64,000 nucleotides of DNA from Candidatus Culexarchaeum nevadense. GTDB lineage: Archaea; Thermoproteota; Methanomethylicia; Culexarchaeales; Culexarchaeaceae. Made by a program: the position numbers and the translations under genes. The stretch's first letter is position 1. The number at the start of each line of letters is the position of its first letter. This document shows positions 42,733-60,064 of the stretch, in pieces. Where the stretch lies: contig JANZKA010000001.1 in NCBI GenBank assembly GCA_025060975.1, forward strand, positions 108,283 through 172,282, read 5' to 3'. The notes under the pieces were generated by a model. That model did not search any database, had not been told where the DNA came from, and worked only from the letters and a program-made list of their open reading frames with translations.

Positions 42733-43017
42733 ATGCCTAAGTTTATGAGTATAAGGAATATTTTAAATAGAATATGTTGGCATCCTAGTGAAAATAGAGA
42801 AGATTATGAAATCCTTTTCATTCATAGAGGAGCACCAAATGATTTAAGGAGTATATCAGCAAAGACGATAGTAAGTGTGAGAAAACAAAGTTTTGAATAT
42901 AAAGAAAATGATGGAAGTATAGTCTACATCCCCTTTCATCGAATTGTAATGATAAGAAATATAAAAACTAGGGAAATAATCTGGAGGAGTAGAAGTAAAG
43001 TATATTTTAAAGCATGA
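42733..43017 (+). CDS. DUF504/UPF0248-like small conserved protein
   Basis: 94 aa. IPFHRIVMI motif typical of the family. Confidence 0.45.
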   Translation: MPKFMSIRNILNRICWHPSENREDYEILFIHRGAPNDLRSISAKTIVSVRKQSFEYKENDGSIVYIPFHRIVMIRNIKTREIIWRSRSKVYFKA

Positions 43018-51632: not shown

Positions 51633-52349
51633 ATGAGTAAGAAGGTAGTCATAAGGCTAGGTGGGCATGTATTATTTCATCAAGGTATCATTGATGTAAA
51701 TAGAGTGAAGGAAGTAGCTAATGTCGTTAAAAATCTTCATAGCAAAGGAGCGATCATAAGAATTGTGGTTGGAGGAGGAAATTATGCAAGGGATTACATA
51801 AATGTTGCTGATGCTCTTGGAGCTTCCGAATTTGAAAAAGATTATCTGGCAATAATAATTACGAGGGCAAACGCGTTTCTATTTACAATGGCACTTAAAG
51901 ACTATGCATACCCAAGAATCCCTCAAACATTGGAAGAGATATTGAACATAGATAGCCTGACAGATAAAATCATAGTTTGTGGAGGACTAGTTCCAGGTCA
52001 ATCTACCGTAAGTGTTGCGGCTATAGTCGCGGAAGCCATAAAGGCTGATTTCATTATAAATGTAACTAATGTAGATGGAGTGTATACATGCGATCCAAAA
52101 GTATATTCCGACGCAAAACTTATTAAAAAAGTTACAACACAGAGATTGAAGGAAATATTAAGAGAACAAAAGGTGAAAGCAGGATACTATGAATTAATAG
52201 ATCTTCACGCGATAAATATTATTGAAAGATCAAAAATACCTCTAAGAATAGTAAATGGAAACGATGTAAACAATATTATTAAAGCTTTCATGAACGAGGA
52301 TGTTGGCACTCTCGTAATTCCAGGAAAAAACAATACGATGAAAGAGTAA
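51633..52349 (+). CDS. pyrH: uridylate (UMP) kinase, archaeal type
   Basis: Amino-acid-kinase fold (IVVGGGNYAR, GGLVPGQST, VTNVDGVYTCDPK). Size 238 aa fits PyrH. Confidence 0.75.
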   Translation: MSKKVVIRLGGHVLFHQGIIDVNRVKEVANVVKNLHSKGAIIRIVVGGGNYARDYINVADALGASEFEKDYLAIIITRANAFLFTMALKDYAYPRIPQTLEEILNIDSLTDKIIVCGGLVPGQSTVSVAAIVAEAIKADFIINVTNVDGVYTCDPKVYSDAKLIKKVTTQRLKEILREQKVKAGYYELIDLHAINIIERSKIPLRIVNGNDVNNIIKAFMNEDVGTLVIPGKNNTMKE

Positions 52350-52359
52350 AATAAATATA

Positions 52360-52400
52360 CTAGAAAACTAGTAAAAATATTTAGCCCACACTAAAAATAG
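52360..52400 (+). promoter_or_regulatory. candidate rRNA operon promoter (A/T-rich TATA-like box AAAATATTTA)
   Basis: The only A/T box between the pyrH stop and the GC-rich leader. Position inferred, not mapped. Confidence 0.3.
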
Positions 52401-52499
52401 GCGGCGTCAACTAGACAGGGGATTAAATCCCTTGGATGAAAAGTTGGCCTCCAAGTGTGGGCAGAATCATGTGGACCTAAACCTTATTGCTTTAGGTCT

Positions 52500-52552
52500 G
52501 AAGAGGGCTCGAGCCCCCGTGAGTGCCCCCCACAAATTTAATTTAGATTATA
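52500..52552 (+). other. 5' arm of the 16S pre-rRNA processing stem
   Basis: GGGCTCGAGCCCCCGTGAGTGCCCCCCAC pairs with GTGGGGGGCCACGTGTGGGGGTCGGGCCC at 54075-54110 just 3' of the 16S. Confidence 0.55.
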
Positions 52553-52565
52553 GGCGGCCGTACTA

Positions 52566-54066
<1,501 letters not shown>

Positions 54067-54169
54067 TAAGTCATAACATGGGGGGCCACGTGTGGGGGTC
54101 GGGCCCGTTTAAATGCAATCTGAAGGAGTATTTCCTTCAGATGAAGGGCGGAGGGAAGTACATCCTTAT

Positions 54170-54228
54170 GATCGCCATGCATAGTTAGGAACGTGAAATG
54201 GTGTATTTTGCAAGTTATGCCACGAGTA
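54170..54228 (+). other. 5' arm of the 23S pre-rRNA processing stem
   Basis: ATCGCCATGCATAGTTAGGAA..GTGTATTTTGCAAGTTATGCCAC is reverse-complementary to 57283-57345. Confidence 0.7.
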
Positions 54229-54229
54229 A

Positions 54230-57280
<3,051 letters not shown>

Positions 57281-57282
57281 CG

Positions 57283-57345
57283 AGGTGGCATAACTTGCAA
57301 AATACACCAAACGATATTCCTAACTATGCATGGCGACACTAAGGG
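57283..57345 (+). other. 3' arm of the 23S pre-rRNA processing stem
   Basis: GTGGCATAACTTGCAAAATACAC..TTCCTAACTATGCATGGCGA is reverse-complementary to 54170-54228. Confidence 0.7.
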
Positions 57346-57676
57346 GGTGAGTGGTGGAGCAGGCGCCGGGCAGGGGATACCCCCTGCCTGAGGAAGCCCA
57401 CCCCCATTGTGGCACCGCAACCCCCTTATTCTTGGGGGTAGGATGAGAATCCTAGCATAGCACAGAAACGACACCCCTTCCAGTCAGATGAAGATGATGT
57501 AGCATAGGCCTTGCAAAAGGCCGAGCAAGCTATTGATGAGGCTGGAAGACTGGTTGCAACGGGCTAGCTTGCGGGGGTAAGGCCAAAAAGGAGCCTATGA
57601 GGGCCACATGAGGCTCGGGTAGGCCGCTTAGACGAATCCTGCTGAAAACAAAAGGTGGGCTACCACCACACACCCC

Positions 57677-58207
57677 CTACTTTAAACCACACAAAAACTC
57701 TTCCTCAATTATTTTAATTTCGGATTCATCTTTTGCCTTCAAGTAGGAATCAATTAACAGTTTATTTAGGGAGAAAAAAGTTTCACCCCATTTAAAAAGA
57801 GATAACAATCTTGCAGCAAGATTTAACCTTCCTATTATTATCAGAGCTGCTGCGAACGCTTCAACACTACTTAGAACGTATGGTTTTGCGTAGTTCGTTG
57901 GATTTGCAGCAAAAAATAAAGGTAATCTTCTCCCCATTCCAATGTTTTTAAATTTATCCAAAACAGCAGTATCCTTCCACGAACAATCTATGACTATTAA
58001 TCCCCACCTTTCTACCGTCGGTTTATCCAGTGCACTTAGCACCTTATTTGATAAGGGATTTAAGACTATAGAAGATTTATTTGCGTACTTCAGAGATGGA
58101 ATGAATTCAATAAGGCCATATTTTTTTAGTTTTATTGAAGTACATTTACGAGGATCACATTCATGCAAATGCCAAACATATAAAGGGGGTAACTCATCAA
58201 TCATCAA
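57677..58207 (-). CDS. tsr3: 16S rRNA aminocarboxypropyltransferase Tsr3 (DUF367)
   Basis: 176 aa. CDPRKCT motif near the N-terminus and a SPOUT-like fold of archaeal Tsr3 size. Confidence 0.65.
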   Translation of the reverse strand: MMIDELPPLYVWHLHECDPRKCTSIKLKKYGLIEFIPSLKYANKSSIVLNPLSNKVLSALDKPTVERWGLIVIDCSWKDTAVLDKFKNIGMGRRLPLFFAANPTNYAKPYVLSSVEAFAAALIIIGRLNLAARLLSLFKWGETFFSLNKLLIDSYLKAKDESEIKIIEEEFLCGLK

Positions 58208-58285
58208 AAAACACCATCAACATATAAAAATTCATTTGCTAAAGCTTAAATTTTAGTTTCATAATAAATTAAAAAGGAGAAAAAC

Positions 58286-58537
58286 ATGAGTATGGCATTT
58301 GTACTTATAAACACCGAAATTGGTGCTGAAAGAGAGGTTGCAAAAGAAATTGTACAGATCGAGGGAGTTGAAGAAGCATATGTAATTTATGGCGTATATG
58401 ACATTATTGCGAAAGTCAGAGCAGAAAACATAGATAAGCTAAAGGAAATAATAACACTAAAAATAAGGAAAATGAGTAAAGTGAGATCTACATTAACTAT
58501 GATCGTCGTTGAAGCAGGGAAAAAGCAAAATGTCTAG
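58286..58537 (+). CDS. stand-alone Lrp/AsnC ligand-binding (RAM) domain protein
   Basis: 83 aa. VLINTEIGAEREVAKEIVQIEGVEEAYVIYGVYDIIAKV matches the AsnC C-terminal domain without an HTH. Confidence 0.65.
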   Translation: MSMAFVLINTEIGAEREVAKEIVQIEGVEEAYVIYGVYDIIAKVRAENIDKLKEIITLKIRKMSKVRSTLTMIVVEAGKKQNV

Positions 58538-58558
58538 CAAACTTTCTAACGGTTATTT

Positions 58559-59947
58559 ATGCATATAAAAATGCATATAGGAATCGATGACACGGACTCA
58601 ATTAGTGGAGGATGCACAACATACATAGGAGCGTTAATCATCGAAGAACTTTTAAAAAATAGGGAAACTAAATTCATAGACTATCCAAACTTGATAAGGT
58701 TAAATCCAAATATACCCTGGAAAACTAGAGGCAACGGAGCCGTAGCACTAAGAATAGAGGTCCTGTACGATGAATCAACAAAAATCGAAGAGAAAGTTGT
58801 TAAAAAAGTTTTGGAGAACGCGTACTTAGACAAAAATACAGAACCAACTGTAGCGTTCTTAAAAGGTGAAGTACCAACCATCTTAAAGAATTTTGCATAT
58901 GAAAGCATAAGAAGAAGGATGGACATCGACCAAGCAGTAAAAATCGCAGAAAAAAGCAATGTAAAATTATTCACACTAAACAATAAAAAAAGAGGCATCG
59001 TAGGAGCCATAAGCGCAATAGGATTAACATTAGATGATGGAGACTATACGTACGAGCTCCTGGCTTACAGGAAAAAGGAAAATTATGGTAAGAAGAGGGA
59101 AATAGATGAAAAAAGTGTATATGAAATGGATAAGTTGACGTCCCCCTACACATTCAATAATATAGACTACGAAAAAAATAGGATATTAATTACCCCAAGA
59201 GGACCTGACCCAGTATTATTTGGAATAAGGGGGGAAAACCCAGAAATCCTATTAACTGCACTTAAAAGAATAAGAGTATATGAGCCCATAGAAAGATGGG
59301 TGATTTATAAAACAAATCAAGGTACAGATATGCATTATATGGATGTAAAAAGAATAAAAGAACTAAAGTGTTATGATGCCGTAAAGTTGCTAGGAAAAGT
59401 CTGTAGCCCACCAAAAATAATAAGAGGAGGACATCTACTACTAACGATAACAGATGAATATAGTGACACTATTGAATGCGCAATCTATGAGCCTACTAAG
59501 AGACTTAAAAAAACAGCCATGTACTTACAGTGTGGAGATACGATAAAAGTCTATGGAGTTGTAAAAGAACATAACAATACTTTAATGATTAATGTTGAGA
59601 AACTGTATGTAAAGAAATTAGAAAAAATTACAAAAAAATTAAATCCGAAATGTCCTATATGTGGGGCAACTATGAAAAGTGAAGGAAAAAATAAAGGATT
59701 CAAATGTGAAAAATGCAAATATAAGGCTAATATAAATACAAAGAAAGAAGAAAGAATTATTTTGAGAAACATTTACGAAGGAATTTATTTACCACCACCA
59801 CGATCACAAAGACATCTAACAAAACCATTAATAAGATACACGAATGAAAGAAGAAGCAACTTACAACAAAAAATGATAAAAAATTGGTATTGGAGCGAAA
59901 CACTCCACACTAACATTAATCAAAATGAAAGTAATGAAGAAGAGTAA
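58559..59947 (+). CDS. tiaS: tRNA(Ile2) 2-agmatinylcytidine synthetase TiaS
   Basis: N-terminal HIGIDDTDS..GGCTTY TiaS kinase-like signature, an OB-like middle region and a C-terminal Zn ribbon (CPICG..CEKC). Confidence 0.75.
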   Translation: MHIKMHIGIDDTDSISGGCTTYIGALIIEELLKNRETKFIDYPNLIRLNPNIPWKTRGNGAVALRIEVLYDESTKIEEKVVKKVLENAYLDKNTEPTVAFLKGEVPTILKNFAYESIRRRMDIDQAVKIAEKSNVKLFTLNNKKRGIVGAISAIGLTLDDGDYTYELLAYRKKENYGKKREIDEKSVYEMDKLTSPYTFNNIDYEKNRILITPRGPDPVLFGIRGENPEILLTALKRIRVYEPIERWVIYKTNQGTDMHYMDVKRIKELKCYDAVKLLGKVCSPPKIIRGGHLLLTITDEYSDTIECAIYEPTKRLKKTAMYLQCGDTIKVYGVVKEHNNTLMINVEKLYVKKLEKITKKLNPKCPICGATMKSEGKNKGFKCEKCKYKANINTKKEERIILRNIYEGIYLPPPRSQRHLTKPLIRYTNERRSNLQQKMIKNWYWSETLHTNINQNESNEEE

Positions 59948-59986
59948 AACTTATTGCCCAGAAAGTAACATAAAAAGATAGAAAAA

Positions 59987-60064
59987 AGCGGGGTGGGCTA
60001 GCCAGGTTATGCCGCGGGGCTCATAACCCCGAGATCGGTGGTTCAAATCCACCCCCCGCTACCA
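59987..60064 (+). tRNA. initiator tRNA-Met (anticodon CAT; A1:U72; three G-C pairs closing the anticodon stem), CCA-encoding
   Basis: AGCGGGG..CCCCGCU acceptor with A1:U72, anticodon arm CGGGG-CUCAUAA-CCCCG and T-loop UUCAAAU. Confidence 0.75.

Follow-up and report, generated by a model that had tools for sequence, protein, structure and literature searches.

An RNase P RNA gene with a bulge-less helix P4 directly behind the 23S rRNA gene of 'Candidatus Culexarchaeum nevadense' and its relatives

Introduction

Which RNA, if any, is encoded in the GC-rich stretch between the 23S rRNA gene and the tsr3 gene of 'Cand. Culexarchaeum nevadense', and how is it connected with the rRNA operon that precedes it? 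A first-pass annotation, made from the sequence without database searches, proposed either a structured noncoding RNA (SRP RNA, a variant of RNase P RNA, or a snoRNA-like RNA) or an unusually long 3' ETS. Of the checks that it proposed, a scan with Rfam models and an inspection of the same position in related genomes are reported here.

RNase P is the enzyme that trims tRNA precursors. In Euryarchaeota a tRNA-Ala gene is found in the rRNA spacer, and genes for 5S rRNA or tRNA follow the 23S rRNA gene. The 7S RNA is linked to the rRNA operon of Methanothermus fervidus. 'Cand. Culexarchaeum nevadense' corresponds to bin GBS-70-058 from Great Boiling Spring, which has a GC content of 37%, and RNase P is unmentioned in the paper describing the Culexarchaeia (PMC9723716).

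A GC-rich island behind the 23S rRNA gene

The window, by which we mean the whole 64-kb stretch of DNA analyzed, has a GC content of 35.7%, and its non-RNA part one of 0.336. The GC content of the island (57343-57677, plus strand) is 0.579, compared with 0.615 for the 16S rRNA gene and 0.595 for the 23S rRNA gene. The island begins where the first-pass annotation had placed it, directly 3' of the 23S processing stem, since the 3' arm of that stem ends at 57344. The abrupt fall in GC content that had been described toward tsr3 is also apparent in a sliding profile, which declines from 0.53 through 0.41 to 0.345 over 57600-57900. The predicted fold of the island has an MFE of -154.1 kcal/mol compared with -121.8 +/- 5.7 kcal/mol for dinucleotide shuffles (z = -5.71), and none of 100 shuffled sequences was as good.

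Identification as an archaeal type-A RNase P RNA

Scanning the whole window against Rfam identified a match to RF00373 at 57347-57673 (plus strand) that scores 169.9 bits against a gathering threshold of 84, with an E value of 1e-48, and spans the model in its full length (positions 1-288 of 288). The full family architecture is present, consisting of P1 to P12, P15/16, the P4 and P6 pseudoknots, and the conserved regions CR-I to CR-V (Table 1). It is nearly certain that 57343-57677 on the plus strand is the RNase P RNA gene of 'Cand. Culexarchaeum nevadense'. The identification itself is routine annotation that any Rfam scan would give, and of the candidates initially listed it leaves the RNase P RNA variant standing while the SRP RNA, the snoRNA-like RNA and the long 3' ETS fall away.

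These other readings nevertheless have some basis in the locus. A non-functional long 3' ETS would be expected as a GC-rich stretch right behind a processing stem, and strings resembling UGAUGA and CUGA exist in the island as they would in a C/D-box sRNA. However, a permissive Rfam scan of the island returned no SRP family match even at E <= 10, and the sole C/D match, to sR21, reached 13.7 bits against a threshold of 45 (E 9.2), which rules out both types of RNA. A plain long 3' ETS is ruled out by the full-length RF00373 match together with covariation that agrees with the RNase P fold (see below). We therefore regard an ETS, an SRP RNA or a C/D-box sRNA as scarcely conceivable at this locus. 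The segment CTGAGGAAGC, which had been compared with helix 8 of SRP RNA, is instead CR-I, which runs on into P4 as its 5' strand. The box-like strings GATGAAGATGATG and TGATGAGG do occur where they had been noticed, and they occupy the positions AuGAuGAU ... uGAgg of the family model in P12.

All five conserved regions align to the upper-case consensus of the family, although CR-I (GAGGAAG) is one nucleotide short. Within CR-IV it is CGCUUAGACGAAU, and within CR-V ACAAAAGGUGGGCUAC, that aligns to this consensus. The surroundings of CR-IV, GGTAGGCCGC(T/A)TAG, are invariant or nearly so in the relatives described below, with differences in the 3' half in four loci (L087, L088, L089 and L092). 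The CR-V motif ACAGAAGG (57647-57655; alignment columns 338-346) is changed to ACAAAAGG in six of the ten clade sequences, and the ACAAAAGG form is also found in one Aenigmatarchaeota locus (L072).

Table 1. Coordinates of the RNase P RNA, its parts and the flanking genes in the 64-kb window
Feature	Position	Strand	Sequence or support
16S rRNA	52566..54067	+	RF01959, 1545 bits; first gene of the operon
23S stem, 5' arm	54164..54223	+	BHB central helix 54192-54195, bulge 54196-54198
23S rRNA	54213..57295	+	RF02540, 2980 bits
23S stem, 3' arm	57285..57344	+	BHB central helix 57310-57313, bulge 57314-57316 (predicted splicing-endonuclease cut)
RNase P RNA gene, archaeal type A	57343..57677	+	RF00373; P1 extendable by 3-4 G-C pairs past the Rfam match
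P1	57344..57357 with 57663..57676	+	alignment columns 1-14 / 354-367
P3 hairpin, extended	57367..57390	+	contains GCAGGGGATACCCCCTGC; 3 covarying pairs
P4, 5' strand	57395..57402	+	AGCCCACC, after CR-I GAGGA; one nucleotide under the family consensus, no bulged U
P6 pseudoknot	57408..57413 with 57603..57608	+	TGTGGC with GCCACA; six pairs, 94% paired, 3 covarying
CR-II	57461..57474	+	CACAGAAACGACAC; agrees with upper-case consensus ACAGAAACGAcAC
P12, distal	57487..57542	+	K-turn-like internal loops; aligned to aAuGAuGAU ... uGAgg, conserved in the clade
P12, distal, first part	57487..57499	+	GATGAAGATGATG
P12, tip hairpin	57507..57522	+	GGCCTTGCAAAAGGCC
P12, distal, last part	57535..57542	+	TGATGAGG
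CR-III		+	UGCAACGG
CR-IV	57625..57637	+	CGCTTAGACGAAT
CR-V	57647..57663	+	AACAAAAGGTGGGCTAC
P4, 3' strand	57654..57661	+	GGTGGGCT, within CR-V
Tsr3 (16S rRNA aminocarboxypropyl transferase family)	57677..58204	-	PF04068 and PF04034

Relatives of the RNA and conservation of gene order

Relatives were collected with a CR-IV/CR-V pattern scan of reference genomes, which gave 76 loci across Archaea, with a CR-I/CR-II/CR-IV pattern scan of metagenomes, which gave four, and from the DNA around homologues of Tsr3. Ten full-length RNAs form the hot-spring archaeal clade considered here (the window, L085, L083, L087, L062, L061, L088, L090, L089 and L092). Two further loci (L084 and L086) are duplicates of L062, one (L091) is truncated, and L097 was left out of the clade boundary because its contig, from an organism of 50% GC, ends 95 nt past tsr3. 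The full-length relatives score 153-193 bits and fall into five lineages with 67-79% mutual identity. Their metagenome-assembled genomes carry the submitters' labels Methanomethylicia or Methanomethylicota and, in two cases, Nitrososphaeria and Bathyarchaeota; the labels are given as submitted.

In all ten full-length loci of this clade, which is of the Culexarchaeia and Methanomethylicia type, RNase P RNA is found at the same position as in the window, with the 23S rRNA gene 5' of it and a convergent tsr3 gene 3' of it. When duplicates are counted the order is seen in L083, L085, L061, L062, L084, L086, L087, L088, L089, L090 and L092, L091 being truncated. Genes for an AsnC-type regulator, TiaS and a tRNA with a CAU anticodon come next after tsr3 wherever the fetched locus reaches that far. 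The distance from the 23S rRNA gene to the RNase P RNA ranges from 49 to 92 nt in the clade. Among the other archaeal loci, a 23S 3' end was found near rnpB in none of 73, and in the more distant outgroup loci L093 to L096, one of them from a Bathyarchaeia genome, the order is absent, with tsr3 located between protein genes.

Secondary structure and covariation

The Rfam fold of the window sequence was projected onto a MAFFT alignment of the ten relatives, the window included, with P4 and P6 added as pseudoknots. Across the resulting 84 pairs, 94.4% of cells are paired compared with 37-50% when the partners are slid by one to three columns, a contrast that is inflated by the structure having come from one of the aligned sequences. 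The counts of compensatory changes are independent of that origin. Compensatory double changes occur in 32 pairs, against a mean of 13.8 after shuffling, and none of 500 shuffles reached 32. The architecture is maintained by compensatory changes across the five lineages despite their divergence.

The largely complementary ends noticed in the first-pass annotation form helix P1, and P2 follows it in the model alignment. All 13 pairs of P1 are intact in 100% of cells across the nine distinct sequences and seven of them covary, which indicates that the complementarity is conserved by selection. The two hairpins picked out on the same occasion, GCAGGGGATACCCCCTGC and GGCCTTGCAAAAGGCC, are present where they had been located and correspond to P3 and to the tip of P12. 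RNAalifold recovered P1, P4 and P6 independently. Hairpins P8 and P9 and stems P15/16 are likewise matched in the RF00373 alignment, and because P6, P8 and P16 are present the RNA is assigned to type A rather than type M or type T.

The distal part of P12 carries conserved GA-containing strands, AUGAAGAUGAU and UGAUGAGG, at the K-turn positions of the family, and these are putative K-turns. Archaeal RNase P RNAs typically have K-turns beyond P12 to which L7Ae binds (PMC6565675). The RNA resembles the type-A RNase P RNAs of Pyrococcus and Methanothermobacter (RF00373) in CR-I to CR-V, in P1 to P3, the P4 pseudoknot and P5, in the P6 pseudoknot, P7 to P12 and P15/16 with P6 closing onto its loop, and in the K-turn-like motifs of P12. 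It differs from them in P4, which reads GAGGA-AGC-CCACC in the clade as opposed to GAGGA-AAG-U-CCNNN, in the G of CR-V that is often A in the clade (ACAAAAGG), in the lineage-specific extensions of P3 and P12, and in the fusion of the clade's gene to the rRNA operon.

The RNA presumably works with the usual archaeal proteins, removing 5' leaders from tRNA precursors. Among 20 small ORFs of the 64-kb window searched with Pfam, none encodes Pop5, Rpp30, Rpp21, Rpp29 or L7Ae, a result that says nothing of the whole genome.

A helix P4 without the bulged uridine

The RF00373 model alignment shows a one-nucleotide gap at the consensus 'gU' of GAGGAAAgUCC. The bulged uridine of P4, a ligand of metal M1 and a supposedly 'universal' trait of RNase P RNA in all three domains, is absent from all ten clade sequences, and as it is missing we consider the clade's RNA to be a variant rather than a typical member of RF00373. 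The ten sequences come from independent assemblies of different sites, so the loss is not an assembly artefact. All other archaeal RNase P RNAs that were fetched retain a nucleotide at the bulge position, and it is U in haloarchaea, Micrarchaeota, Aenigmatarchaeota, Ferroglobus and others.

In each of the ten sequences AGCCCACC pairs contiguously with GGUGGGCU of CR-V, in the order A-U, G-C, C-G, C-G, C-G, A-U, C-G and C-G, and the pairs are 100% formed in the nine distinct sequences. A register test was applied to every fetched locus. For every clade member the continuous register gives eight of eight pairs, compared with six of eight for the canonical arrangement of 3 bp, a bulge and 5 bp, which was rejected for the clade on this ground. 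In 53 canonical loci the sequence alone would permit either register, as U can wobble with G, and the bulge is there taken from published structures.

Substitutions within the clade distinguish the two registers. The fourth P4 pair, at the canonical bulge position, changes from C-G to U-A in L089 and L092, the second pair changes from G-C to A-U in L087, and the last pair changes from C-G to U-G in L061 and L090; the compensatory columns are 59/351 and 61/349. Because the U-A, A-U and U-G changes fit the continuous register only, P4 appears to be continuous rather than bulged. That it forms an 8-bp helix without the bulged U is well supported by the comparison of relatives, the register resting on two independent double changes and one wobble.

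Six loci from metagenome-assembled genomes of Thermoplasmata or Thermoplasmatota (L012, L020, L024, L033, L044 and L063) have an apparent bulged A, not U. Their P4 reads GAGGA-AAU-A-CCCCC / GGGGG-AUU (AAC-A-CCCCC / GGGGG-GUU in L033), and this is the sole consistent register. Micrarchaeota and Aenigmatarchaeota have a P4 of the type GAGGAAGC-U-C with the same three pairs before the bulge position (AGC/GCU) as the clade. They differ from it in having retained the U that the Culexarchaeum clade has lost.

The bulged uridine of P4 has been termed 'universally' or 'strictly' conserved, and its O4 contacts the catalytic metal M1 (PMC3488217; also PMC11143913). The U52C substitution costs approximately 10-fold in activity, mutations in the RNA-alone reaction 20-100-fold, and deletion in an archaeal holoenzyme 13-fold, and the authors grade the nucleotide as 'critical but not essential' (PMC3488217). 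The engineered mutants (T. maritima U52C, E. coli U69 variants and the archaeal delta-U holoenzyme) resemble the clade in lacking the O4 ligand for M1 (PMC3488217). However, they are laboratory-made and have 10-100-fold defects, whereas the loss described here is natural and clade-wide and leaves P4 fully Watson-Crick paired. In the clade's enzyme the catalytic metal is presumably positioned through backbone phosphates, through proteins, or through both.

Because activity falls 10-100-fold in bacterial and archaeal systems when the bulged U is deleted or mutated (PMC3488217), the gene might instead be a catalytically crippled or repurposed relic that lost its bulge under relaxed selection while a protein-only RNase P (HARP) or a second rnpB processed the tRNAs. 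Some archaea do have HARP alongside the RNP form, however the latter predominates in such archaea (PMC12153264), and Pfam scans of the 20 small ORFs of the 64-kb window did not identify HARP. Genome scans identified a single rnpB locus per metagenome-assembled genome in L061 and L062. The grading of the nucleotide as not essential (PMC3488217) also tells against a relic. Strong purifying selection acts on all the remaining conserved regions and helices, with compensatory changes among lineages that are 67-79% identical, and this makes a decaying gene unlikely. Overall we consider a relic improbable and favor a functional RNase P RNA with a bulge-less P4.

Junction with the rRNA operon

The RNase P RNA is preceded by the 16S-23S operon, which is tRNA-free; tRNA scans identified no tRNA in the 16S-23S spacer. 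The 23S stem is an inverted repeat of 60 nt with 85% complementary arms. The BHB of the 16S stem is canonical (GCCCC-CGTG-AGT-GCCCC / GGGGC-CACG-TGT-GGGGG). That of the 23S stem (AGGAA-CGTG-AAA-TGGTG / CACCA-AACG-ATA-TTCCT) contains one central-helix G-A mismatch and is canonical in L061. The predicted cut in the 3' arm precedes the RNase P RNA by approximately 27-29 nt.

The 51 nt from the 23S end to the start of the Rfam match consist entirely of the stem arm. The last two G of the arm also provide the first G of P1, so that the gene begins 0-1 nt past the stem (57343/4). Because no separate spacer precedes the gene in this lineage and the 3' arm of the 23S stem passes straight into P1, RNase P RNA is probably co-transcribed with the two rRNAs, as the third cistron of their primary transcript. 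Neither a T-run of four or more nor an AT-rich box separates it from the 23S rRNA in the window, L085 or L083, and the window lineage has no convincing TATA/BRE internal promoter.

The gene could also be a transcription unit of its own beside the rRNA operon, with a promoter in or just after the stem arm. Some members of the clade are consistent with this arrangement. The spacers of the deepest relatives are longer and AT-rich (83 nt in L089 and 92 nt in L092), L089 has a T5 run together with the TATA-like TTTTTATT at -30 to -23, and L092 has a T4 run together with the TATA-like TTAATTTT at -30 to -23 from the 5' end of the RNA. In the window the octamer ATATTCCT (57314-57321), a weak, A/T-containing string inside the stem arm, also lies at -30 to -23 from P1 and may be a poor internal promoter. 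However, ATATTCCT bears little resemblance to the archaeal TATA consensus, an AT-rich spacer is absent altogether in the window, L085 and L083, and the window lineage has no T-run terminator between the 23S rRNA and the RNA. The A/T boxes of L062, L061, L090 and L088 are at about -22 to -9, too near the 5' end of the RNA, and L087 has no TATA-like box at -30 to -23. Independent transcription may thus occur in part of the clade, that of L089 and L092, and as the general explanation it seems to us rather unlikely. One might speculate that the gene was formerly an adjacent, independent unit and that its own spacer was lost in Culexarchaeum.

Taken as a whole, the locus is very probably best explained as a type-A RNase P RNA with a bulge-less P4 that is probably the third cistron of the 16S-23S transcript.

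How the RNA would be released from such a transcript can be outlined from other archaea, in which EndA cuts the bulges and RtcB closes the pre-rRNA into a circle and joins the leftover spacers into an ETS/ITS by-product (bioRxiv 10.64898/2026.03.23.713588). For an RNase P RNA transcribed as the third cistron, cleavage of the 23S-stem BHB by EndA would fall at about 57315 and would leave the RNA on the 3' trailer, preceded by a leader of approximately 28 nt. By analogy with other archaea the leader may become ligated to the spacer remnant. A further nuclease would then trim the leader, and the 3' end would be trimmed back from a downstream T-run. Excision of the RNA by the splicing endonuclease through a BHB flanking P1 was also considered and rejected, as the flanks add at most one A-U pair and no bulges.

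A box H/ACA sRNA is part of the 16S-23S precursor in Thermococcales (bioRxiv 10.64898/2026.03.23.713588). The clade resembles that operon in having a stable non-rRNA gene on the rRNA transcript that would be freed by processing, co-transcription being inferred here. It differs from the other operons with passengers in that the passenger is the RNase P ribozyme and is located at the 3' end of a tRNA-free operon.

Implications for RNase P

A literature search of incomplete coverage gave no instance of a natural lineage that lacks the P4 bulge, no description of an RNase P RNA at the 3' end of an rRNA operon, and nothing that treats RNase P together with Verstraetearchaeota or Methanomethylicia. 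Two clade-wide features thus appear to be new, the bulge-less P4 and the attachment of the gene to a tRNA-free 16S-23S operon at its 3' end, as the search found no earlier report of either.

We give about an even chance to the full proposal that the class-level clade of Culexarchaeia and Methanomethylicia type runs a bulge-less RNase P ribozyme that is made as the terminal cistron of the rRNA operon and released from the 3' trailer after processing by the splicing endonuclease. If true, the clade would be a natural experiment in which the bulged U is dispensable in vivo for RNA-based RNase P, and it would reveal a new coupling of RNase P supply to ribosome synthesis. A natural, selected P4 without the bulge would offer a direct test of how an active site is built in the absence of this nucleotide, for which backbone-only coordination, proteins, and conditions of high temperature and high Mg2+ are candidate compensations. 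Alignments and models that hold this U invariant would be too strict, with which the six bulged-A loci of Thermoplasmata agree.

Tying RNase P RNA to a tRNA-free rRNA operon would link the level of a tRNA-processing ribozyme to rRNA transcription. It would also pose a processing problem, as a functional RNA would have to be recovered from a trailer that is normally discarded or turned into a ligated by-product. Methanomethylicia have recently been cultivated, so that both questions could be tested there.

Neighboring genes

The gene downstream of the RNase P RNA had been correctly recognized as tsr3; its product is 100% identical to an NCBI protein of archaeon GBS-70-058, in which Pfam identifies the two domains listed in Table 1. 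The gene is convergent with the RNase P RNA, and its stop codon directly adjoins or overlaps the final C able to join P1. In L090 the RNase P RNA and the tsr3 coding region share approximately 30 nt (2354-2383) at their convergent 3' ends.

The region 51633-60064 of the window is a neighborhood of the translation apparatus, containing genes for uridylate kinase, 16S rRNA, 23S rRNA, RNase P RNA, Tsr3, a small AsnC-type regulator, TiaS and a tRNA with a CAU anticodon. The order Tsr3, AsnC and TiaS is kept even in the Bathyarchaeia genome L096, where no rRNA operon is adjacent. The tRNA-CAU gene (59987-60064) is directly downstream of TiaS (58559-60064 for the pair), and the same pairing is found in L087, L089, L091 and L092. 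TiaS converts C34 of tRNA-Ile2(CAU) to agmatidine, and the tRNA-CAU beside it may be the enzyme's own substrate. Elsewhere in the window a small ORF (42733-43017, plus strand) encodes an MJ1316 'RNA cyclic group end recognition' domain, which may be relevant to RNA ends with 2',3'-cyclic phosphates such as the products of EndA.
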